From the NCBI GenBank assembly GCA_963745035.1, contig CAVUVW010000027.1:1-64000 (forward strand): a stretch of DNA of 64,000 bases. Direction: 5' to 3'. This document shows, in pieces, positions 40,007 to 54,451 of the stretch. Within the stretch, counting starts at the first letter, position 1. Each line of letters begins with the position of its first letter. Both the position numbers and the translations under genes were made by a program. The notes beneath the pieces are model-generated. The model made no database searches. It was not told the DNA's origin and saw only the letters and a list, made by a program, of their open reading frames with translations. This DNA is from an uncultured delta proteobacterium. GTDB taxonomy: Bacteria > Desulfobacterota > Binatia > UBA9968.

Positions 40007-41497
40007 ATGACCGCACTAGAGGCTAGGAAACTAGCCGAAGACGAAATGAAAGCCGGGAAAACCCCGAAGTACACCGACCTGCGTGAATGGTTGGAGATCG
40101 TCGACAGCGTCGGCGAACTGAAAAAGATCGATGGCGCCGATTGGAACCTCGAAATGGGTACCCTGGCCGAGCTATTATCCCGCGAAACCAAAAGCGGCTC
40201 CGTGCCGGCGGTTCTATTCGACAACGTCCCCGGTTATCCAAAAGGTTTCCGCACTCTGTTCGCCCAAAACGCTTCGTTCAAACGCATGGCGTTGAATTTG
40301 GGCCTGGACATGAACCTTTCCAGTCTCGATTTGGTGCGCGCCTTCCGCCAAAAGCTCGTGACTCACGAGCCGATCAAGCACAAGGTCGTCACCAAAGGGC
40401 CGATTCTTGAAAACGTCGATTCCGGCGACAAGGTCGACCTGCTCAAATTCCCGGTTCCTTTCATGCACGAATTGGATGGCGGCCGCTTCATCGGCACCGC
40501 TTGCTTGGTGACCACTCGCGACCCCGATGAAGGCTGGGTAAATTTCGGCGCTTACCGCGGCATGGTGCATGACAAAAATAGCATGGGCCTCTACATCTCT
40601 CCCGGCAAGCACGGCAGCATTCAGCGCAACAAGTATTTCGAACGCGGCAAGCCTTGCCCGGTCGTCGTTTCGGTCGGCCAGGATCCGGTGTTGTTCATGG
40701 TTTCCGGTAACGAGATCGACTACGGCGTGTCAGAATTCGATTATGCCGGCGGTCTCAAGGGCGCTCCCATCGAAGTCATCGAAGGCAAATCCACCGGCTT
40801 GCCGTTCGCGGCGCAAGCGGAAATCGTCATCGAAGGTTGGATGGATCCGACCGACCGAAAGACCGAAGGTCCGTTCGGCGAATGGACCGGTTATTATGCC
40901 AGCTCGAGCCGTCCGGAACCGGTGATCCGCGTCGAAAACGTTTATTACAGAAACGATCCGATTCTCTGCTGCGCTCGTCCGGGCCGTCCGCCGTCGGATT
41001 ATTCCATCGCCAAATGCATGGTGAAGGCGGCGTTGATCTGGGAGCAGGTCGAAAAAGCCGGCGTTCCCGATGTCAGAGGCGTATGGTGCCACGAGGCCGG
41101 CGGCGGCCGCCTGTTCAACATCATCTCGATCAAGCAGCGCTATCCCGGCCATGCGCGCCAGGCCATGTTGGTCGCTTCCCAAGTCCATGCCGGCGCGTAT
41201 CTCGGGCGTTACGTGATCGTCGTCGACGAGGACATCGATCCGACCAACACCTTCGACGTGATCTGGGCGTTGGCCAGCCGTTCCGATCCGGTGGAGTCGA
41301 TCGAAATTCTCCGCCGCTGCTGGAGCGGCCCGCTCGATCCGCGCATTCAACCCGGCAAGAAGGGCTTCAACTCCCGCGCGGTGATCGATGCTTGCCGTCC
41401 GTTCGAGTGGATGAAAGATTTCCCGCCGGTCGCCGAGTCTTCGCCTGAGCTGAAGGAGAAGATCTACAACAAGTGGAAGAAGGTTATCGAAGGATAG
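40007..41497 (+). CDS. UbiD family (prFMN-dependent) decarboxylase
   Basis: DLREWL, DGGRFIGT, EGPFGEWTGYY, VDEDIDP, LDP. Confidence 0.93.
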   Translation: MTALEARKLAEDEMKAGKTPKYTDLREWLEIVDSVGELKKIDGADWNLEMGTLAELLSRETKSGSVPAVLFDNVPGYPKGFRTLFAQNASFKRMALNLGLDMNLSSLDLVRAFRQKLVTHEPIKHKVVTKGPILENVDSGDKVDLLKFPVPFMHELDGGRFIGTACLVTTRDPDEGWVNFGAYRGMVHDKNSMGLYISPGKHGSIQRNKYFERGKPCPVVVSVGQDPVLFMVSGNEIDYGVSEFDYAGGLKGAPIEVIEGKSTGLPFAAQAEIVIEGWMDPTDRKTEGPFGEWTGYYASSSRPEPVIRVENVYYRNDPILCCARPGRPPSDYSIAKCMVKAALIWEQVEKAGVPDVRGVWCHEAGGGRLFNIISIKQRYPGHARQAMLVASQVHAGAYLGRYVIVVDEDIDPTNTFDVIWALASRSDPVESIEILRRCWSGPLDPRIQPGKKGFNSRAVIDACRPFEWMKDFPPVAESSPELKEKIYNKWKKVIEG

Positions 41498-46426: not shown

Positions 46427-46513
46427 CATTCATTCTTCATTGAGAATAACATTGACATGAAAGAAACTCAGGAATAAGAAGCAGCCAGCAGATTGTAATC
46501 CGTGGAGGTGAAC

Positions 46514-47281
46514 ATGGGCAAGCTCAGGCATATCGCGTTTATTTCGGCGGAGCCGAAGAAGCTGAGCGATTTTTATCAGAAGTATTTCGGCTTCGAGGAG
46601 TGCAAGGTCTTCCCGAGCGGATCGAGAATGGTGATCGATCCGCTGTTCAATCTGGCATTTCTGCAGAGCCGAGGCGACCAAGCAGGGGCCGTTGTCGGCA
46701 CGCACCGGGCGGACGGCGCCGAAGTCGAGCGCCAACCTGGAATTCATCACTACGGTTTTCTTGTCGATAATTTGGATGAAGCCGTGGCCAAGCTGCCCGC
46801 CTCGCTCAATCGCGGCGCAAGTCCGCAAGTGTCAGCCGGAGTCGGCGGCGCCGAAGGTGCGCGACCGGCGGAGATGCGCTTTGTCGATCCGTGGGGCAAC
46901 AACGTCGATCTATCCTCGCGAGGATTTTTAGGCAGAGAAGAGAATAAACTTCCGGGAGTGCGATTGCTCGCCGTGCATGTTCCCGATTTGGCCGCGGCCT
47001 GTGAATTTTACCAACAGCAGTTCAATCTCAAGGTCGTCGGCTGGACCGATGACGGGACAATTCGCCTGAGCGACGGCACCGTGACGCTCTTGCTTACCAA
47101 GTCACAAGTGCGGCCGAAGAGCGGCGTGCAATACTTCGGCATTCAGGTTGACGATCTCGCAGGCGTTAAGAAGCGCTTGCGGGATGGTGGTGTGGAGATC
47201 CGAGAAGGGTCGCAGGAGATTCGGTTGACCGATCCGGAAGGCAATCAGGTGGCAGTCTCGCAAAGTGGTTGGGCGAACTGA
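46514..47281 (+). CDS. Two-domain VOC family protein
   Basis: LRHIA, IHHYGF, DPWGN, DPEGN. Confidence 0.85.
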   Translation: MGKLRHIAFISAEPKKLSDFYQKYFGFEECKVFPSGSRMVIDPLFNLAFLQSRGDQAGAVVGTHRADGAEVERQPGIHHYGFLVDNLDEAVAKLPASLNRGASPQVSAGVGGAEGARPAEMRFVDPWGNNVDLSSRGFLGREENKLPGVRLLAVHVPDLAAACEFYQQQFNLKVVGWTDDGTIRLSDGTVTLLLTKSQVRPKSGVQYFGIQVDDLAGVKKRLRDGGVEIREGSQEIRLTDPEGNQVAVSQSGWAN

Positions 47282-47326: not shown

Positions 47327-48283
47327 CTACCGTAGACCCAACTCCTTCTGAATTTCTCGTAGAATACTGAAATCGGCGATCTCGCCGAGTGGCACTTCGC
47401 GAGTGATTTTTGCGTCGCGCTTGGCCTGATCGATCAGCAGCTTCAATCCATCCTCAGGGATGCCGCCGTCGGCGCTGATGACTTTTACCGTCGCATCATA
47501 GGACGCGTAGGCGTGTTCCGGCTTGGCCTTTCCCCACTCCATTAAAATTTTTGCGGCTTCCTCCCGATTGTCGCGAATGAAACGGCTTGCCTTGATCAAG
47601 GCTTTGGTCGTCCGTTTAACCTGGTCGCGGTTTTGCTGAATCGATTTCGCGTTCAATCCGACACCGGACAGCGGATAATTCAGATATTCATAGGCGCGCG
47701 CCAGAACGTTGAATCCCGACTTCTTGCCCTCGAAGTCCCATGGCGGTGAGGTGACCACGGCGTCGGCGAGTTTTTGTTGCAATCCCGCAAACCGGCCAGA
47801 ATCCGGGCCGAGCGGCACGAATTGAACTTCCTTGTCGGGATCGACGCCGTTGCGCGCCAGGATAATTCTTGCCAGGACTTGCGTGGCGTCGCCGAAGCCG
47901 GCGAGACCGATTTTTTTGCCGCTCAGATCTTTAATCGATTTGATATCCGCGCGCGCGAGCAAGACGTGCGGAGAGCTGGTCATCAAACCGGCCACTAAGC
48001 GAACCGGCAATCCGCGAATCGCCGCCCGAATCACGGTACCGGTCAACAGAGTGAAATCGATGTCACCGTTCGAGAGCGCAGCGATCGACGGCGCGGCGCC
48101 CATGACGACAATGTCGGCGTCGAGTCCTTCGTCCTTGAAAAATCCCTTACGCTGCGCAACTCCGGCGGGTAGAAAAATCATGTTGTAGCCGCCGGAGACC
48201 GAGATGCGGATTTTTTCCGCGGCGTAAGCATCGAAAACGCCGAAGAAGACGGCTAGGAGCAGGCCAAAGCGGATTCCCGTCAT
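47327..48283 (-). CDS. NMT1/SsuA-type ABC substrate-binding protein
   Basis: Signal peptide, KGFFKDEGLD, DLSGKKIG. Confidence 0.88.
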   Translation of the reverse strand: MTGIRFGLLLAVFFGVFDAYAAEKIRISVSGGYNMIFLPAGVAQRKGFFKDEGLDADIVVMGAAPSIAALSNGDIDFTLLTGTVIRAAIRGLPVRLVAGLMTSSPHVLLARADIKSIKDLSGKKIGLAGFGDATQVLARIILARNGVDPDKEVQFVPLGPDSGRFAGLQQKLADAVVTSPPWDFEGKKSGFNVLARAYEYLNYPLSGVGLNAKSIQQNRDQVKRTTKALIKASRFIRDNREEAAKILMEWGKAKPEHAYASYDATVKVISADGGIPEDGLKLLIDQAKRDAKITREVPLGEIADFSILREIQKELGLR

Positions 48284-48383
48284 AATGAACCTCCGAACGG
48301 CTCGACGCTTTACGAAGTTTATAACCGCCAGCACGAACTGCTTCCCGACCTACAATGACTTAGACGCGTTGTAAGGCGGTTGG

Positions 48384-48866
48384 TCATCTTTTTTGGACTC
48401 CAATCAGCGCAAAGAACTCTGTCTCCATGTGATGAAGCGCCTCAGCGTTGCCGTGCTTGAAGTCTCTGAAGGGCTGCCAAAACCGAAATATTCGTGTACG
48501 GCGGAAGGGGCGAAAAACGACGGCGAGCGGATTGAATCGCCGGTAGCCGCCGAAATGATGGAACGCTAGCCGAGCTAGTGAAATGCGCCAGCGCTTACGC
48601 TGCGACCAATTGAGAACAACGGCCCGTTCGCCGATGTACGGAAGAATGTGTTGATCGATATATTCGCGCCAAATGGGGCTTTCGGAGTAGACGAAGAGGA
48701 TGTCACGCCCGCGCAAGCACCACCACATCCAAATGGCGATGTGTAGACAAACCGTTGATACGACAAAGAACAGAAGCGCGACCGTTATAAGGATGATTAT
48801 TACCGGAGCGAAAGAAATGATGAGTGCCAGCTGCCACCATTTGAATTTCGATTCTCGACTCTCCAT
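48384..48866 (-). CDS. Hypothetical membrane-anchored protein
   Basis: 160-aa ORF with N-terminal hydrophobic segment. Confidence 0.55.
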   Translation of the reverse strand: MESRESKFKWWQLALIISFAPVIIILITVALLFFVVSTVCLHIAIWMWWCLRGRDILFVYSESPIWREYIDQHILPYIGERAVVLNWSQRKRWRISLARLAFHHFGGYRRFNPLAVVFRPFRRTRIFRFWQPFRDFKHGNAEALHHMETEFFALIGVQKR

Positions 48867-48889
48867 GAGCCTGCTGACCAGGTTAACCG

Positions 48890-49420
48890 CTACCGCCGGT
48901 TGTCGTTAGACTCGGGCCGCAGATTGTCGATCGGCTGAATAAGCTGCGTCTCGACATCGTCGGGTATTTCAGCACGGCGCACAATCTTTGGCCATAGCTC
49001 AAGCGGCGGTGCTTTGATCAATGACGCATCGAGCGCGACATCATCAAGATCGTCGTGCAAAAAAGGGCGCTGGCCGCAATGACGGGCATCGCACGAGGCG
49101 CGGATCCCCGGACGGCACTCGCGCCAATGGCAGATGCGGCCGATGTAGTTACCGGACGGATCGGCCAGAAAGATGTCAGCACCTCTATTTTGGCTCTGAG
49201 CGTGTCCTTTCAGTCTTCGACCCGCGGCTGCTAGGTGAGTGAGATCGGCGTCATCATCGACAGTGACCAGCACGTCGGCATCCTTCGGATCGGTTTTGCC
49301 TGTTGTCAGCGAACCGATGAGCGCGATGCGACGAACACCTGGAAAAAATCGAGCATGCTCGACAAACTGCCGGACCTCGGAGAGTAGAACAGTTCGAATT
49401 GTTGACTCGCCGTTTGTCAC
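48890..49420 (-). CDS. Pol-beta-type nucleotidyltransferase-like protein with Cys/His-rich insert
   Basis: LIGSL...PKDADVLV motif; CHWREC...CDARHC. Confidence 0.65.
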   Translation of the reverse strand: MTNGESTIRTVLLSEVRQFVEHARFFPGVRRIALIGSLTTGKTDPKDADVLVTVDDDADLTHLAAAGRRLKGHAQSQNRGADIFLADPSGNYIGRICHWRECRPGIRASCDARHCGQRPFLHDDLDDVALDASLIKAPPLELWPKIVRRAEIPDDVETQLIQPIDNLRPESNDNRR

Positions 49421-49816
49421 CTGTCATTGCCTAGCATGTAAATAAGGTTGCTGGCCCATTGTTCTATCTGCGTTGAGGCGAATCGTTCAAACATCCCGCG
49501 TGGAACGTCCGCTATGCCCGATACTTCCAAGGTCGAGTCATCGTTATTCGCGATTTACCTTCTTGATCGACATATTGTCAATCGTGGGTCGCTGGCGAAC
49601 CTTCAACACAGCTGGTCAGTAGAGAGCACGCGCGATCAGAGGTTCTCAGGATGCGACTTGGATTAGGAGCGATTCTAGAGTCGATCCTTACTCCGTCGCA
49701 ATCTACTTGACCTGTTCCAAGCGCGGGGTGTAGTTGTGGCGAAGCAAGGACGGGCGGCGTATGCAATACGCCTTTACAAAGAATCATTGGGCGACCATTC
49801 AAGACTAGGAGGTAAG

Positions 49817-50191
49817 ATGCGCGTACTTAAAATTGGTGAGCTGCAGGAAAAACCGATGGATACCGCGACGCCGATCGCCGGGTGGACTGGTGGAGAGGTG
49901 AGCCGGACGCGGCAAGCGGTGATCGGCGACGGGCAGTCGGAAAATTTTCGCTGCAACGTCGTCAACTTTCGCGTCGGGGCGACCACGGGGTGGCATGTGC
50001 ATGATTGCGACCAGATTCTCGTCGTTACGGCGGGGAAGGGCAAGGTTGCAACTGAAGGCGAAGAGCGCGACATCGCCGTCGGCGATATCGTGCATATCAA
50101 AGCCGGCGAGCGCCACTGGCACGGCGCGACAGCGGAAACTCCGATGTCGCACATCACGGTGACGACGGTCGGCAGCACCTCGAAGCATTGA
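49817..50191 (+). CDS. Cupin domain protein
   Basis: AGGAGG RBS; WHVHDCDQ and GERHWHGA motifs. Confidence 0.9.
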   Translation: MRVLKIGELQEKPMDTATPIAGWTGGEVSRTRQAVIGDGQSENFRCNVVNFRVGATTGWHVHDCDQILVVTAGKGKVATEGEERDIAVGDIVHIKAGERHWHGATAETPMSHITVTTVGSTSKH

Positions 50192-50233
50192 GCAGCGTAC
50201 TGATCCGGCTTTAGCTTCGGAGGAGGAATAGTC

Positions 50234-51124
50234 ATGCAAATTCTCAAAGGCGACTTGAGTAACGTCAAAGGAATCCCTCCGAGCGGGCTCTGCGTCGGTG
50301 TTCATCGGGCGGGCGCCGTGCACCAGAAGATGGTCGCGAAGCACGGCGAAGGTCTTGCGGTCTGGTCGCTCAGACCCGATCTTGATTTCATCGCTTTCAA
50401 AAAGGAAGGGTTGGGGGAACAGGGAATTCGCTCGACTAGCGACATGGAATCAATAGACGCGGATGAAAAACTGATATACGGCGTGCGCGGGGCGCCGCCC
50501 GAGGTGAGAGAAAAAGCGCGCGAAAAAGGCCTCACGCTGCTGGCCGACGCGACCTGTCCTTTCGTGACTCAGCAGGAAGAGGCGGAAATCGAGCTGCTGA
50601 ACGCCGGCTGTCACCTGGTCGTTCTCAGCAGCCGCACGCATCACGGCATCCCAAGGCTCCAGGGGATTGCGCAAGCGAAAGGCAAAGAGGTCTTTATCGT
50701 CGAACGCGAAGAAGAAGTCCATTCGATTCGTCTCACTCGTTTCGAGCCCATCGGCGTGATTGTGCAGACGACCTTCTGGTTGGAAACTTACAAGAAAATT
50801 ATCGGGCGCATACTCGAGCGCTTCGCCAACGTGCAGATTCGCAACACAGCTTGCATCGACTCGCTGCAGCGTCTTCCAGAAGTCGAGAAGCTTGCCAAAC
50901 AAGTCGATGCGATCATTATTTTCGGCTGGACCGAAGGAATGACAACCCGAATGGTCGAAGTTGCGCGGGCTTTCAATGCTCATGTGCACAAAATTGAAAA
51001 AGTCGACGATCTCCAGCTCGATTGGCTGCGGGGAAAAGAGAAGGTGGGCATCATCGGCGCCAACGAGACTCCCGAATGGATGATCAATGAGGCAATCGAG
51101 CGCATCAAAAGCATGGCGGCCTGA
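50234..51124 (+). CDS. IspH/LytB-like [4Fe-4S] protein with non-canonical active site
   Basis: GLCVGV.RA, DATCPFV, VQTT, NTAC, TPEW. Confidence 0.85.
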   Translation: MQILKGDLSNVKGIPPSGLCVGVHRAGAVHQKMVAKHGEGLAVWSLRPDLDFIAFKKEGLGEQGIRSTSDMESIDADEKLIYGVRGAPPEVREKAREKGLTLLADATCPFVTQQEEAEIELLNAGCHLVVLSSRTHHGIPRLQGIAQAKGKEVFIVEREEEVHSIRLTRFEPIGVIVQTTFWLETYKKIIGRILERFANVQIRNTACIDSLQRLPEVEKLAKQVDAIIIFGWTEGMTTRMVEVARAFNAHVHKIEKVDDLQLDWLRGKEKVGIIGANETPEWMINEAIERIKSMAA

Positions 51125-51127
51125 GCT

Positions 51128-51409
51128 ATGCCGAAAGTGACTTTCATGCCGGCCGGACAGTCCTTTGAAGTGGCGGCGGGCACGACGATCCTGGTTTCGG
51201 CGATCCAGAACGGCTTACAGCTGCGCCACGACTGCACCGAAGCGATTTGCGGCACGGACCGGGTGAAGATCCTGTCCGGTAAAGAACAGCTGAGCGAAAA
51301 GGATGAGAACGAGGAATTGACCCTCGAAATGATGAACGCAGAGCCGGACGACAGGCTGGCTTGCGTCGCGCGGATTATCGGCGACGTGACTGTCCTAGTG
51401 ATCGACTGA
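51128..51409 (+). CDS. 2Fe-2S ferredoxin-like protein
   Basis: HDCTEAICGTDRV...RLAC. Confidence 0.85.
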   Translation: MPKVTFMPAGQSFEVAAGTTILVSAIQNGLQLRHDCTEAICGTDRVKILSGKEQLSEKDENEELTLEMMNAEPDDRLACVARIIGDVTVLVID

Positions 51410-51458
51410 ACAACCCAAGGAAAACCGAGAGAGCTTACCGCCCGATTAAGGAGTAGCG

Positions 51459-52013
51459 ATGGCTTACATCAAAACCATCCCGCCTGCAGAGGCGACCGGC
51501 AAGCTCAAAGAGGTTTACAGCGCCAGCAGCGGGCCGTCGGCGGCGCGCGGAAAGGTGGCGATGATTCGCCAGGTACAGAGCTTGAATCCTGACGCTCTTG
51601 CGGCCTGGAGCGCCCTCGGCGCTGAGATCATGCATGGCCGGTCGCGGATCACGCGTCGCCAGCGCGAGATGATCGCCACGGTGGTATCAGCAGCCAATCA
51701 CTGTAGTTATTGAATGACGGCGCACGGGGAGGCTCTCCGTACTGAATCGAACGACGATCCTCTGGTCGAAGGCATCAAGCGGGATTACACCCAGTTGAAT
51801 TTGCCGGCGGCCGAGCGGGCGATGTTGGATTACGCCGTAAAACTGACGGCGGCGCCGTCGAGCGTCGATGAAAGCGACATCAAAAACTTGCGCTCCCACG
51901 GCTTCGACGACCGGGATATTCTAGATATCGTCTACGTGATCTGCCTGTACAATTTTAACGACCGGATGGCGGACGCGACCGGAATCAAAGGGCATGATTT
52001 TCTGGCGGGTTGA
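51459..52013 (+). CDS. AhpD/CMD peroxidase-related enzyme, probable selenoprotein (UGA at 51711-51713)
   Basis: Two ORFs join in frame: REMIATVVSAANHCSY-TGA-MTAHG matches N.C.YC...H; hairpin follows the UGA. Confidence 0.8.
51724..51740 (+). promoter_or_regulatory. Candidate bacterial SECIS element
   Basis: ACGGGGA-GGC-TCTCCGT stem-loop; G-leading loop starts 17 nt after the UGA. Confidence 0.55.
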
Positions 52014-52042
52014 ACTTCAGCGCGCTCAAAAGGCAAAGAATG

Positions 52043-52116
52043 CTTCGACGAGTCAGCATGAACGGAACATCACCAATAACATCCAATCCCCTCCGCTCGT
52101 CCTGAGACTGTCGAAG
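52043..52116. repeat. Degenerate intergenic inverted repeat
   Basis: CTTCGAC..TCAGCATGAACGG pairs imperfectly with CCGCTCGTCCTGAG..GTCGAAG. Confidence 0.55.
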
Positions 52117-52181
52117 GACTGGATTCCCGCGAAACATGCGGAAATGCGGATTTTGGAGCCGGTGGCTCGGGAGATTCAGCG

Positions 52182-52289
52182 ATGATCGAGCTTTATCACA
52201 ATGACATGTCGGTTTGCGCGCAGAAGGTGCGCCGGCTGCATCTTTACGAGGAGAGAGTGTTTTTTAAGTCGTCGCAGAAGTACGCCTAG
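52182..52289 (+). pseudogene. Glutathione S-transferase N-terminal fragment
   Basis: GGAG RBS; MIELYHNDMSVCAQKVR, then similarity ends and a stop follows. Confidence 0.6.
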
Positions 52290-52462
52290 ACTTTCATGCT
52301 AGATCTTGAGTTCGGGCGTCTGGTCTTTAGATATCGCTTCCGTGCTGGTTCAAGCCTACCTGCAGCCAACATCGCACGTCCGATTTGTGCGCAGAAATCG
52401 TCATCACCGCATAGAAGCGCAAAAAACTCGGTGCCTCCGACGGGGTCGGCCCTCAAATTTCT

Positions 52463-52522
52463 GCATAACAGCAAGTTAAGCCGCCAATCGGTTCCTTGGT
52501 CAGCTTCAACTTTATGTTAGGC
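52463..52522 (-). mobile_element. Integron attC site (60 bp)
   Basis: Minus strand GCCTAAC-ata-AAGTTGAAGCTGACC-aaggaaccgatt-GGCGGCTTAACTT-gct-GTTATGC. Confidence 0.85.
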
Positions 52523-52994
52523 ATACGCGCTCCAGAATTTGCTCTACAACTTCCTTTAGCGGCGCCGATGTGTCTATCTCATACGATGCACCACGACGTA
52601 ACAGTGGCTCGACCTCGTCCATATTCCGAATCACTTCTTCGCGCTCCGCAGCGGTCTTACCATAAGGATTATTGGTCCGGGTGGATAATCGGTTAAGAAT
52701 GACGTCCCGAGGTGCACTCAGGAGGACAACATCTGTAAGTTGGGAGTAGAATTTGACCTGATTTTCGGCACATCCGCTGATGAATAGCGGGAGTGCTCCG
52801 GCATTGCTCAAGGCTTTCTCAACTAAATCCTCACACCAAACCTGGTTCCCAGCTGAGTCCCGATAGGAATGCGCCGGATCGTCCATGTCAATGGCACGAA
52901 AGCCCCTTTTCCGAAGCTCTTCGACGACACTCGATTTGCCGGTCGCAGACATCCCGGTGAGCAGGACCCTGGGGGCTTTCATTGGCTCGTTCAT
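52512..52994 (-). CDS. P-loop small-molecule kinase-like (AAA_18-type) protein, integron cassette gene
   Basis: LTGMSATGKS Walker A, R..R.NNPYGK; bounded by GTTAGGC and attC. Confidence 0.85.
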   Translation of the reverse strand: MNEPMKAPRVLLTGMSATGKSSVVEELRKRGFRAIDMDDPAHSYRDSAGNQVWCEDLVEKALSNAGALPLFISGCAENQVKFYSQLTDVVLLSAPRDVILNRLSTRTNNPYGKTAAEREEVIRNMDEVEPLLRRGASYEIDTSAPLKEVVEQILERVCLT

Positions 52995-53292
52995 GTATGC
53001 CTAACTATTAAGTGAGGCGCTGTAGGCGCCGAAAATGCGGGTCGGCTTATCTCCGGCGGCGGCTGACAGTACAATCTAAAATTTGCTGCAATATCCATCC
53101 GCTACCCCATCCTGTCAAGGTCAGCATTACCGAAAAAAGCAGACCGGAGCGGCGGGTTGTTTGCCTGCGTCGACAAGTAGATCCTTCGGCATCGCCTCAG
53201 GATGACATTGGGGCCCTCTAAGTATTGAGCTTTACGCCCTTGCCCGGCAGGAAGGTTCCGTCGTAAAGAAAGATAGGGGACGAGGGACGATT

Positions 53293-54451
53293 ATGAAATT
53301 CTCGATCTTCATGATGCCGCTGCATCATCCGACGGAGAACCCGTCGTTGGCGTTTCGATCGCGACATCGAGTTGATTCATTACGCCGAGGAGTTGGGCTT
53401 TGACGAGTTTTTTATCGGCGAGCACCACTCCGGCGGCTGGGAAACCATGCCGGCGCCGGAGATGGCGCTGGCCAAAGCCTCGGCGCGGGCGCATCGCATT
53501 CGCCTCGGCACTTCCGTCATCAGCGTGCCGTTTCACCATCCGTTTCACGTCGCCGAGCGTATGGCATTTCTGGACCACCTGACGCATGGTCGAGCCATTC
53601 TCGGCGTCGGTCCTTGCGCTTTGGTTACGGATAAGAATCTCTTCGGATTGGCGACCGAAAAGCTATACCCGATGATGGCCGAATCCGTGGACATCATCGT
53701 GCGCCTGCTCGAGTCGCCGGAGCCGGTCGATTACGACGGGCAATTCTGGAAAATTAAACAAATGCGCCTGCAACTGCGCTCCTACCAGCAGCCGCGCATG
53801 CCACTCGCCATCGCGTCATCGGGAAATCGGGTCAGCATCGAACTCGCCGGGAAGTACGGCATGCTGTTCTTGTCGCCGGCGGGGAAAAATATACGGAACA
53901 ATCAATCCAAAGCCGAGCAGTGGAAGGCGGTCGAAGCGACCGCCGCAAAGCACGGCATGCAAACTTCTCGCGACAACTGGCGCATCGCTACTTGCGTGTA
54001 CCTCGCCGAGAGCCGGGAAGAAGCGTGGCGCGACGTCGAAGCGAGCATCGATCGCGACAAGGAGTATTTTTTTTCCATCGGCTTGAAGGCGCCTTACGAA
54101 GCTTATCCGGGGCAGCCGGCGCATGAAATCACGGCGCGTTCGGGCGCCGACCGCCGCGATTGGATCATCGGCACGCCCGACGACGCTATTGCTCAGATCG
54201 AGCGCATGCAGGCGGAAACCGGCGGTTTCGGTGGCTTGATGGTGACCACGCACGAATGGACTTCAACCGATAAGCTGCGCCGATCCTATGAACTATTCGC
54301 GCGCTATGTGATGCCACATTTTCGCGGCCACACCGACGGCTATCGCGACCAATGGCGGCGTATTCAGGAAGCTGTCAATAATGGTGGGAATGTAAGTGAG
54401 AGCGCCGGCAAGTCGGGCAACGCTACTCTTAAAGAGGGTGCGCGATCATGA
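53293..54451 (+). CDS. LLM class flavin-dependent oxidoreductase (frameshift near 53355)
   Basis: GFDEFFIGEHHSGGWE, PFHVAERMAFLDHL, YELFARYVMPHF. Confidence 0.9.

Follow-up and report, generated by a model that had tools for sequence, protein, structure and literature searches.

A divergent IspH paralog and an atypical ferredoxin form a pair separable from the cupin and AhpD-like selenoprotein genes around it in Binatia

The sequence analysed here (the window) is a 64,000-nt stretch, positions 1 to 64,000 of contig CAVUVW010000027.1 in the genome assembly of an uncultured member of the Binatia (GCA_963745035.1, G000 below). Four open reading frames on its forward strand encode, in order, a cupin, an IspH-like protein, a ferredoxin (Fdx) and an AhpD-like protein, and are separated by 42, 3 and 49 nt (Table 1). 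This layout agrees with the original prediction, which had described four same-strand genes with gaps of 3-49 bp. The non-canonical metal or redox sites were also real: the active site of the IspH-like protein is replaced, Fdx carries Asp44, the AhpD-like protein has a CSYU motif, and the cupin has an H-x-H-x3-Q motif. Ribosome-binding sites of the GGAGG or AGGAG type were read from the sequence ahead of the start codons of the cupin, IspH-like and AhpD-like genes. A metagenome contig of independent origin (L156) was collinear over 1812 nt at 86.9% identity and contained the identical Fdx-to-AhpD junction; given that the junction recurs in this contig, it is not an assembly artefact.

Table 1. 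Coordinates of the genes and features at the locus, in window positions
Feature	Coordinates	Strand	Description
Cupin	49817..50191	+	124 aa; Cupin_2; H-x-H-x3-Q...H metal motif
IspH-like paralog	50234..51124	+	296 aa; IspH/LytB fold
Ferredoxin (Fdx)	51128..51409	+	93 aa; 2Fe-2S-type; C36-x4-C41-x2-D44...C79
AhpD-like selenoprotein	51459..52013	+	184 aa; TIGR01926; C82-S-Y-U85; in-frame TGA at 51711-51713
SECIS-like hairpin	51724..51740	+	7-bp stem, 3-nt loop; starts 10 nt past the UGA
GST gene remnant	52182..52289	+	35-codon ORF; N-terminus matches the GST of relatives
VOC/glyoxalase protein, two-domain	46502..47281	+	Conserved island flank, upstream
Luciferase-like (LLM) oxidoreductase	53372..54451	+	Conserved island flank, downstream

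Searches of positions 48800-53400 against Rfam (E up to 1) matched nothing, and a scan for promoter and terminator consensus sequences returned five weak promoter-like sites, none of them on the forward strand upstream of the cupin. Short contigs from three RNA-library runs fell within the cupin, IspH-like and AhpD genes; presence in such libraries does not prove transcription. Library X19 gave contigs at 50472-50647 (3 differences) and 50843-51007 (0 differences), and library X20 gave one at 51439-51685 (1 difference). None of these contigs spans two genes, and the stretches left uncovered carry no meaning. Flanking genes at related loci were identified by GC3-filtered ORF picking, and by tblastn for two lower-GC loci (L096 and L097) where the GC3 filter missed genes.

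The IspH-like protein was matched by the LytB profile (PF02401) with 154.9 bits over profile positions 6-267 of 267, that is, over its whole length. Its AlphaFold model (pLDDT 85.8) aligned to E. coli IspH (3KE8) in Foldseek with a TM score of 0.76 and an E value of 5.6e-20, and the next non-IspH matches had TM scores of ~0.2. At the [4Fe-4S] ligand positions, C20 and C108 were conserved in 67/67 paralog sequences and C207 in 66/67 (the remaining one has a gap in a partial sequence), all three aligning with ligand cysteines of 3DNF and of E. coli IspH. Binding of a [4Fe-4S] cluster with one free iron is therefore predicted by these alignments. H136, the equivalent of H124, was present in all 67 sequences, and Q178-T179-T180, equivalent to Q166-T167-T168, in 66 plus one with a gap.

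The remainder of the active site differs. According to the review PMC8837944, the diphosphate pocket of IspH is formed by H41, H74, H124, S225, S269, T168, N227 and Q166, and the E126Q, E126D and E126A mutants of the E. coli enzyme are almost inactive. In the IspH-like protein, the Glu126 position is occupied by Gly138 in both HMMER and MAFFT alignments, and glycine was found there in 67/67 sequences. H41 gives way to a D49-L-D51-F segment, H74 to R85, S225-x-N227 to E234-G-M236 and S269 to E278, with all five pocket residues replaced in every one of the 67 sequences. The original prediction of an atypical IspH-like enzyme was borne out by this consistent loss of HMBPP-binding and proton-donor residues. 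Positions that were invariant or nearly so across the same set comprise the three cysteines, R85, H136, H137, G138, R141, Q178-T180, D209, E234-G-M236 and E278; E234 and E278 are not fully kept in the most distant relatives of the paralog (P0130 and the P0134 group).

A canonical ispH, for which the original prediction had asked, was located elsewhere in the same genome, on contig C13. Its product scored 322.5 bits against PF02401 and 328.9 bits against the TIGR00216 equivalog model (cut-off 187.85) and contains all canonical motifs. The IspH-like protein scored 137.1 bits against TIGR00216, below the cut-off, and is ~25% identical to this canonical IspH. A second, ~25%-identical canonical match was present in 24 of 25 relatives that carry the paralog (the exception is G009), and a quick maximum-likelihood tree split 19 paralog-type rows from 80 canonical rows with an SH-aLRT of 99. 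We conclude that the genome has a real IspH paralog, distinct from the canonical enzyme.

These data bear on the reading in which the genome has two HMBPP reductases, the paralog being, for instance, an isozyme that tolerates stress and draws on a reductant of its own. The whole-length LytB fold, the retention of the three cysteines and of the H124 and T167 equivalents, and the name given to these proteins by JGI annotation pipelines all speak for it, as does a MerR-type regulator gene directly upstream in alphaproteobacterial loci of the pair; MerR-type regulators are frequent in stress regulons. The loss of Glu126 and of the five pocket residues, the sub-threshold equivalog score and the low identity to the resident IspH count against it, and we regard this reading as extremely unlikely. 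The substrate of the paralog is probably not HMBPP, and the pipeline label of HMBPP reductase is very probably wrong for these proteins, which should serve as a warning to annotators.

Fdx scored 41 bits against Fer2 (PF00111; cut-off 21), and its best relatives among solved structures were 1I7H (54.6 bits) and 9I2A (50.6 bits). It departs from the four-cysteine pattern C-x4/5-C-x2-C...C, as D44 aligns with the third cysteine of both structures. Aspartate was found at this third ligand position in 13/13 and 31/31 sequences of two alignments, the first of which (n=13) also showed H34, D35, C36, T37, E38, C41, G42, T43, R76, L77 and C79 to be invariant along with D44. To our knowledge, the only natural Cys3Asp 2Fe-2S site is that of E. 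coli succinate dehydrogenase SdhB.

Phyletic patterns were compared for Fdx, cupin, AhpD and UbiD-X (a UbiD group described below), that of Fdx across 123 genomes of the order, 59 of which carry the paralog. Fdx was present in 53/59 genomes with the paralog and in 0/64 without it; in a first sample the figures were 24/25 and 0/16. It lies immediately 3' of the paralog in 56/58 assessable metagenome loci and in 34/63 assessable genome loci, with 26 of the other 29 belonging to family f3, where an Fdx ortholog is present ~0.4-0.5 Mb from the paralog. Adjacency extends to all eight divergent loci of non-Binatia type (paralog identity 49-58%), seven of which are labelled proteobacterial (L090-L092, L094-L097) and one unclassified (L087), so that the arrangement occurs in two phyla, in Binatia and in some Alphaproteobacteria. 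Fdx matches were absent from six paralog-bearing genomes (G264, G294, G312, G314, G250 and G036; completeness 66-97% for five, 76% for G250), and Fdx may therefore be dispensable or these bins incomplete. No ferredoxin gene was seen downstream of the paralog at L123, the only locus with flanks among the P0134-type distant relatives, which is too little to conclude from. Complex predictions for the IspH-like protein with Fdx gave 0.32, 0.25 and 0.18 (median 0.25, against a mark of 0.32) and speak neither for nor against binding. The IspH-like protein and the Cys3Asp ferredoxin are a real unit, and their co-distribution marks Fdx as a dedicated partner of the paralog, to which it would pass electrons.

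Given that the catalytic glutamate is lost, that the pair has MerR and MarR regulator genes as neighbours in Alphaproteobacteria, and that the genomic context varies, the paralog might instead be a non-enzymatic Fe-S sensor, regulator or scaffold, with the ferredoxin-like partner acting in signalling or cluster handling; the loss of Glu126 could indeed signal lost catalysis. A domain search of the IspH-like protein returned no DNA-binding or signalling domain, however, and strict conservation extends to an entirely new complement of polar residues in the pocket, a pattern typically seen where an active site has been re-tooled. This alternative is considered very unlikely.

The cupin scored 45.8 bits against Cupin_2 and 83.5 bits against the (R)-mandelonitrile lyase model NF049940, whose cut-off is 140, and is therefore not an equivalog. 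Orthologs of at least 81% identity occur in genomes both with and without the paralog, including 9/15 same-genus genomes that lack it. The AhpD-like protein was assigned to TIGR01926 ('peroxidase-related enzyme') with 142.6 bits, above the cut-off of 81.8. Its prediction as a selenoprotein was confirmed. An in-frame TGA was found in 35 of the 36 listed matches of relatives (one TGA in 34, two in 1), the 36th being partial and confined to sequence past the site. Sec machinery is encoded in the genome, with selA (523 bits), the selB wing domain (76 bits) and selD (384.6 bits, itself containing one TGA) on contig C17, and one tRNA-Sec was detected using ARAGORN.

A candidate SECIS hairpin 10 nt past the UGA was compared across 14 AhpD-like genes. 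Five pairs were invariant, in a stem that overlaps conserved codons; one pair was GC/CG-compensated in 3 sequences, and another showed 3 G-U variants and one break. The loop reads GGC in the window and GUU in the AhpD-like paralogs. A single-sequence fold of 86 nt (51705-51790) was no more stable than most controls, with 185/200 shuffles at least as stable. The AhpD-like gene genuinely encodes a selenoprotein. AhpD-Sec orthologs were detected in at least 6/16 relatives without the IspH paralog, and within the genus such genes are arrayed in groups of as many as 4-5 paralogs, next to genes for an RDH-like protein, a PrdB-like selenoprotein and a GST.

Comparison of related loci showed that the cupin and the AhpD-Sec gene are members of a genus-level island consisting of VOC, cupin, AhpD-Sec copies, RDH-like, AhpD-Sec, GST and LLM genes. 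VOC orthologs (70-93% identity) lie upstream of the cupin in L117-L119, L033 and L048, and LLM orthologs (81-91%) downstream of AhpD-Sec or GST in L117, L119, L120, L122 and L033. An intact GST gene follows the AhpD-Sec gene in relatives by synteny, and the first 17 residues of the remnant in the window are 17/17 identical to a GST N-terminus (L019:10084-10869). G000 is missing the OCD-family and RDH-like genes and has the truncated GST; in many relatives an OCD-family gene accompanies the IspH-like/Fdx cassette.

The original prediction had joined all four genes in one dedicated electron-transfer pathway acting on one substrate, with a selenol-dependent AhpD-like step. The shared strand and short gaps fit such a pathway, and so does the recurrence of the gene order, unchanged in L156 and slightly altered in L145, L033 and L048; moreover, loci of this genus mostly have the cassette lying within the island, ~14/20 loci (at least 85% identity) having same-strand island genes beside it. 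The modules are separable in both directions, however. The four families occur together in just 3/68 genome loci and 5/72 metagenome loci, all of them close relatives with at least 85% paralog identity. The island, in the order cupin, three AhpD-Sec genes, RDH-like, AhpD-Sec, GST and LLM, is complete without IspH-like and Fdx genes in G018, G019 and G008, lies apart from them in G015, G012 and G004, and appears in L122 as cupin, AhpD-Sec and LLM, which is the arrangement of the window minus the cassette. Conversely, no cupin or AhpD-Sec orthologs were found in any of the 11 family-f3 genomes, all of which carry the paralog, and the alphaproteobacterial loci of the pair contain neither gene. 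A single four-gene pathway is thus quite unlikely, and the cupin belongs to the island rather than to the pair. What survives of the prediction includes a dedicated atypical ferredoxin for the IspH-like protein, and of the co-occurrence it called for, that of the pair, as the foursome was not found beyond close relatives. Some functional tie between the modules may still exist, given that the cassette is island-embedded in most loci of the genus.

Linkage to UbiD genes suggested a further alternative, in which the pair works with a prFMN-dependent UbiD, either by sharing a pathway with it or by serving its cofactor (e.g., through supply of a prenyl donor or prFMN maturation). One orthologous group, UbiD-X, lies within 2.6 kb after the paralog in 29/55 assessable loci (26 of family f3, L087, L094 and L095), and three linked UbiDs all best match the same G000 gene, C21:164139-165632 (71, 58 and 57% identity). 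All genomes bearing the pair are also UbiD-rich, with 52 matches in G000, 20-57 in 41 relatives and 14-38 in five non-Binatia genomes of 2.7-4.1 Mb. With ~50 UbiD genes per genome, however, some chance adjacency is expected, and the f3 cases represent a single lineage. UbiD expansion is equal (20-51 matches) in 15 same-genus genomes without the paralog, so the pair as supplier of all UbiD enzymes was rejected. UbiD-X as an obligate partner was likewise ruled out, by its orthologs of 85-94% identity in paralog-free genomes (e.g., G005-G008 and G013) and by best matches of ~50% identity or lower in four pair-bearing f2 genomes; in G000 itself UbiD-X is unlinked to the pair. A working partnership with UbiD is accordingly judged unlikely. 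Adjacency of an SsuA/NMT1-like binding protein gene was dismissed as chance because G000 has ~260 such genes.

We favour, with modest confidence, an explanation in which two modules are interleaved at this locus, an IspH-like/Fdx redox pair and a cupin/AhpD-Sec island. The first module (50234-51409) would consist of a divergent [4Fe-4S] protein of IspH/LytB fold and a Cys3Asp ferredoxin acting as its private electron donor. The paralog appears to retain what the fold needs to hold its cluster, namely three cysteines and the histidine and threonine beside the apical iron, and to have been stripped of HMBPP diphosphate recognition and of the Glu126 proton donor, with R85, H137, R141, D209, E234 and E278 as the putative replacement set of invariant polar residues. 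Judged from these residues, its chemistry may be of IspH type at the unique iron, a two-electron reductive dehydroxylation or a hydration/dehydration, directed at an allylic or similar C-O bond in a non-diphosphate and probably neutral or cationic substrate, while IPP and DMAPP are made by the canonical IspH. The second module would comprise the cupin, the CxxU selenoprotein, the GST remnant and the flanking VOC and LLM genes, and may serve the genus as a thiol/selenol redox or detoxification island, into which the IspH-like/Fdx cassette (with the OCD-family gene in many relatives) was presumably inserted.

More speculatively, and with doubts that outweigh our confidence, the pair could be a new Fe-S enzyme system in which the organometallic mechanism of IspH is turned on a substrate that lacks phosphate and may be cationic. 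It would be limited to soil bacteria whose UbiD and Amidohydro_2 decarboxylases are extremely expanded, and would have an ancestral link to one UbiD subfamily. If true, this would give the IspH fold a second natural reaction, placed before or after a prFMN-dependent (de)carboxylation. IspH is an intensively studied drug target and a rare case of organometallic Fe-S catalysis, for which we know of only a single natural reaction. A clade with a kept cluster site, a re-tooled pocket and its own ferredoxin would reveal further capabilities of the fold, and the IspH-like protein and Fdx offer a clean pair for expression and assay.

Literature searches on IspH/LytB paralogs, on IspH with UbiD, and on UbiD, IspH or LytB in Binatota/Binatia turned up no paper on such a clade. 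In passages of the IspH similarity-network paper (PMC4746011), fusions are reported but no active-site-divergent clade. The IspH-like/Cys3Asp ferredoxin pair is apparently undescribed, but the selenoprotein is nothing new in kind, since AhpD-like 1 and 2 selenoproteins with CxxU motifs were already tabulated by Zhang and Gladyshev (PMC2398784). The AhpD-like gene of the window shares with them the CMD/AhpD fold, CxxU in place of CxxC, a putative hairpin behind the UGA and Sec machinery in the genome, and has no essential difference from them.

The remaining proteins can each be set against a known family. With the Mn-dependent (R)-mandelonitrile lyases (NF049940) the cupin has in common a Cupin_2 barrel and the H-x-H-x3-Q...H motif, but it scores under the family cut-off; in the Granulicella enzyme, Mn is bound through His3Gln ligation. 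Fdx resembles ISC- and plant-type [2Fe-2S] ferredoxins (PF00111) in its ~90-residue Fer2 beta-grasp and in having cysteine ligands 1, 2 and 4 in register; unlike them, it has an invariant aspartate for the third ligand cysteine and is found solely alongside the IspH paralog. The paralog, finally, shares with IspH/LytB HMBPP reductases the whole-length fold, the three cysteine ligand positions, the H124 and Q166-T167-T168 equivalents and a ferredoxin as likely reductant. It differs from them in the change of Glu126 to Gly and of H41, H74, S225, N227 and S269 to Asp, Arg, Glu, Met and Glu, in its score below the equivalog cut-off, in forming a separate clade with a canonical IspH co-resident, and in being coupled to a private Cys3Asp ferredoxin.

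The four open reading frames were found as predicted, adjacent on the forward strand with intergenic gaps of 42, 3 and 49 nt (3-49 bp in the original prediction). This arrangement is no assembly artefact, because the IspH-like gene, the ferredoxin gene and the AhpD-like gene recur collinearly on a metagenome contig of independent origin (L156; 1812 nt, 86.9%). The genes were also predicted to form one system, and as such a four-gene system is not supported. The four families were found close together in 3 of 68 loci from genomes and 5 of 72 from metagenomes, every one from a close relative, and the neighbourhood survey separated the cupin and AhpD-like genes from the IspH-like gene and ferredoxin.

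Features of the window in and around the four-gene locus
Feature	Position	Strand	Description
UbiD-family copy	40070-41494		One of 52 in this genome
SsuA/NMT1-like solute-binding protein	47327-48334	-	One of about 260 paralogs in this genome
Two ORFs between binding-protein gene and cupin	48384-49420	-	176 aa, weak DUF6932/nucleotidyltransferase match; 160-aa predicted membrane protein, no family match
Cupin	49817-50191	+	First of four ORFs; Cupin_2, 124 aa
IspH-like paralog	50234-51124	+	Second; LytB/IspH profile, 296 aa; PF02401 154.9 bits over the entire profile
Ferredoxin	51128-51409	+	Third; Fer2 type, 93 aa
AhpD-like selenoprotein	51459-52013	+	Fourth; TIGR01926 (AhpD/CMD fold), 184 aa; frame open only with TGA 51711-51713 read through
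Truncated GST	52182-52289		First 17 codons identical to relatives' GST, then unrelated sequence

The cupin and AhpD-like genes belong to a genus-level island and not to the IspH-like/ferredoxin pair. Among same-genus genomes, 9 of 15 that lack the paralog and 7 of 9 that have it carry a cupin ortholog (at least 81% identity), in the latter often on a different contig, and AhpD-like orthologs were likewise distributed among genomes with and without the paralog. Neither ortholog was found in 11 genomes of family f3, every one of which carries the paralog. In the cupin regions fetched, the island runs on one strand through a VOC protein, the cupin, three AhpD-like CxxU paralogs, a reductive dehalogenase (RDH)-like Fe-S protein (304 aa; TIGR02486 119 bits, below the cut-off of 160), the ortholog of the window's AhpD-like gene, a GST and an LLM protein. 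Some relatives bearing the pair (L048, L034) have a PrdB-like selenoprotein before the GST (TIGR04483 115 bits, below the cut-off of 300). The island occurs without the pair in three genomes (G018, G019, G008) and apart from it in three others (G015, G012, G004); on one contig (G004 C5) the order cupin, AhpD-like gene, LLM is that of the window minus the pair. Elsewhere the pair directly follows the cupin or the three AhpD-like paralogs, and an ornithine-cyclodeaminase/mu-crystallin family gene lies downstream of it in 11 loci. Because its GST is truncated and both the cyclodeaminase-family and RDH-like genes are missing, the window locus resembles a reduced form of the island. Up to four to five AhpD-like CxxU paralogs were arrayed on one strand in seven loci of relatives (L117, L118, L119, L121, L035, L154 and L157; motifs CSYU, CRFU-TVAH and CRFU-GIGH). 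These arrays adjoin a short RDH/QueG-like Fe-S protein, a PrdB-like selenoprotein with an in-frame TGA (L019:9124-10026) and a GST.

The AhpD-like gene was correctly predicted to encode a selenoprotein. Its redox motif is C82-S-Y-U85, and an in-frame TGA was found at the same site in 35 of 36 matches in 41 related genomes (34 with one TGA, 1 with two), the remaining match being partial and stopping short of the site. The window's genome has one tRNA-Sec, and selA, selB and selD are neighbours on its contig C17. There selD (318816-319742) carries one in-frame TGA of its own, so SelD is probably itself a selenoprotein. A 7-bp hairpin lies 10 nt 3' of the UGA, and 14 AhpD-like genes from the group share it, with one GC/CG compensatory pair. 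A SECIS element at this position is graded as no more than probable, because the stem overlaps conserved codons, the single-sequence fold is no better than shuffles and an Rfam search around the hairpin gave no match. AhpD-like CxxU selenoproteins have reportedly been known since 2005-2008, and the selenoprotein part of the locus is of an ordinary, already known kind. 'AhpD-like 1' and 'AhpD-like 2' are tabulated as CxxU selenoproteins in PMC2398784.

Among functional links in this region, that between the paralog and the ferredoxin has the strongest support. Across the order, 53 of 59 paralog-bearing genomes and 0 of 64 others gave a ferredoxin match; in the first 41-genome sample the counts were 24 of 25 and 0 of 16. 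Excluding genomes flagged as unpublished (G284 and G298 in the order, G005 in the first sample), the affected values are 51 of 57 and 0 of 15, respectively, and no claim depends solely on those genomes. Related genomes are not independent, but the pattern nevertheless spans three families and a second phylum. Of the loci that could be assessed, 56 of 58 from metagenomes and 34 of 63 from genomes have the ferredoxin gene immediately 3' of the paralog. Family f3 accounts for 26 of the other 29 genome loci, and its genomes have a ferredoxin ortholog (65-70% identity) several hundred kb from the paralog; the last three loci (L054, L082, L084) have neither ferredoxin nor UbiD beside it. The ferredoxin is atypical, as had been proposed: its ligand pattern is C36-x4-C41-x2-D44...C79, where D44 takes the alignment position of the third ligand Cys in ferredoxins of known structure and is invariant in 31/31 and 13/13 sequences, proteobacterial ones included.

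A link of the pair to UbiD was also considered. In f3 loci, genes for a UbiD-family protein, a TIGR00725/SLOG protein and an AI-2E transporter come after the paralog, while three other loci (L087, L094, L095) have the order paralog, ferredoxin, (MarR), UbiD, with MerR and TauE-family genes upstream and a GST downstream. These linked UbiDs are orthologous to one another, but the ortholog also occurs in genomes that lack the paralog and was not found in four genomes of family f2 that have it. All these genomes, with or without the paralog, show a huge expansion of UbiD genes. The UbiD link is kept as an unlikely alternative and not as the main reading. The alphaproteobacterial loci L090, L091 and L094 have a MerR-family regulator gene immediately 5' of the paralog, a gene for a TauE/SafE-family membrane protein beyond it, and a MarR regulator gene separating ferredoxin and UbiD; such neighbours hint that the pair may be under stress- or ligand-controlled expression there. 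PF01977 (UbiD-family) matches number 52 in the window's genome, 20-57 in each of 41 related Binatia genomes and 14-38 in five unrelated 2.7-4.1 Mb genomes sharing the pair; PF02441 flavoprotein (UbiX/CoaBC-type) matches in the window's genome number only two. The UbiD expansion, with those of the SsuA/NMT1-like and Amidohydro_2 (PF04909, about 84 paralogs) proteins (the latter two counted from tblastn hits with query coverage of 60% or more), suggests a very large (de)carboxylase/uptake repertoire.

In a search of 1.84 billion representative proteins, no more than 29 matched the paralog at E 1e-30 or better, and full-length relatives beyond the clade representative and fragments were few (P0130, P0134, P0147 and P0149, 34-45% identity), followed by canonical IspHs. 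The majority of the 68 loci in GTDB species genomes are from Binatia MAGs, and seven are titled alpha- or gammaproteobacterial or 'Pseudomonadota' (49-56% identity). The paralog was present in 59 of 123 genomes within the order and in none of 200 genomes drawn evenly from elsewhere in the phylum. Seven contigs whose paralog is 87-93% identical to that of the window were in MAGs with the titles Verrucomicrobiia, Gaiellaceae and Candidatus Udaeobacter, and the Candidatus Udaeobacter bin had five such contigs along with four copies of the ferredoxin; the likely cause is mis-binning or a mixture of strains, rather than transfer. Sequence near-identical to window positions 49700-52100 was found in soil, rhizosphere and winery metagenome runs from at least seven studies, and three metatranscriptome libraries gave short matching contigs as well. 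The paralog is annotated as 'hypothetical protein' for two members (NCBI) and as 'HMBPP reductase' for many (JGI). No published account of such a clade was found in full-text literature searches or in the available part of the IspH network paper (PMC4746011).

A canonical IspH, as the original prediction had asked to be confirmed, is encoded on contig C13 of the same genome (PF02401 322.5 bits; TIGR00216 328.9, cut-off 187.85) with all usual motifs. The paralog is only about 25% identical to it and scores 137.1 against TIGR00216, below the equivalog cut-off. Aligned to solved IspHs and to this canonical copy, it keeps cluster cysteines C20, C108 and C207, H136 (H124 in IspH) and Q178-T179-T180 (Q166-T167-T168). 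Replaced are E126 (G138), H74 (R85), H41 (an Asp-containing segment, D49-L-D51-F), S225-x-N227 (E234-G-M236) and S269 (E278), and these replacements are invariant or nearly so across 67 sequences from Binatia and proteobacterial MAGs. The review PMC8837944 gives the diphosphate pocket as H41, H74, H124, S225, S269, T168, N227 and Q166, and the activity of E126Q/D/A mutants as almost nil. The AlphaFold model (pLDDT 85.8) matched IspH structures alone (TM 0.76 to 3KE8; next folds about 0.2). In a quick maximum-likelihood run, not a careful search, 15 clade members and 4 distant relatives were split from 80 canonical IspHs (SH-aLRT 99), the latter taken from the best 150 database hits as single-domain proteins 270-330 aa long, with longer fused forms excluded. 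Given the retained fold and cysteines, the replaced defining residues and the separate clade, the paralog is a LytB superfamily member and, judged by those residues, not an HMBPP reductase. The proposal of a substrate other than HMBPP agrees with this.

The paralog has the IspH fold, conserved cluster ligands, conserved new pocket residues and a private ferredoxin to which it is coupled. In the mechanism we propose, the ferredoxin would reduce a predicted [4Fe-4S] cluster, whose fourth iron would bind a substrate oxygen or pi-system, and a two-electron reductive dehydroxylation or a hydration/dehydration would follow; IspH carries out the latter with alkynes, according to the review PMC8837944. 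The proton-donor role of E126 may be taken over by D209, H137 or E234. Where IspH has a basic, serine-rich diphosphate pocket, the paralog has Asp, Glu, Glu and Arg instead, which speaks for a substrate that would lack a diphosphate.
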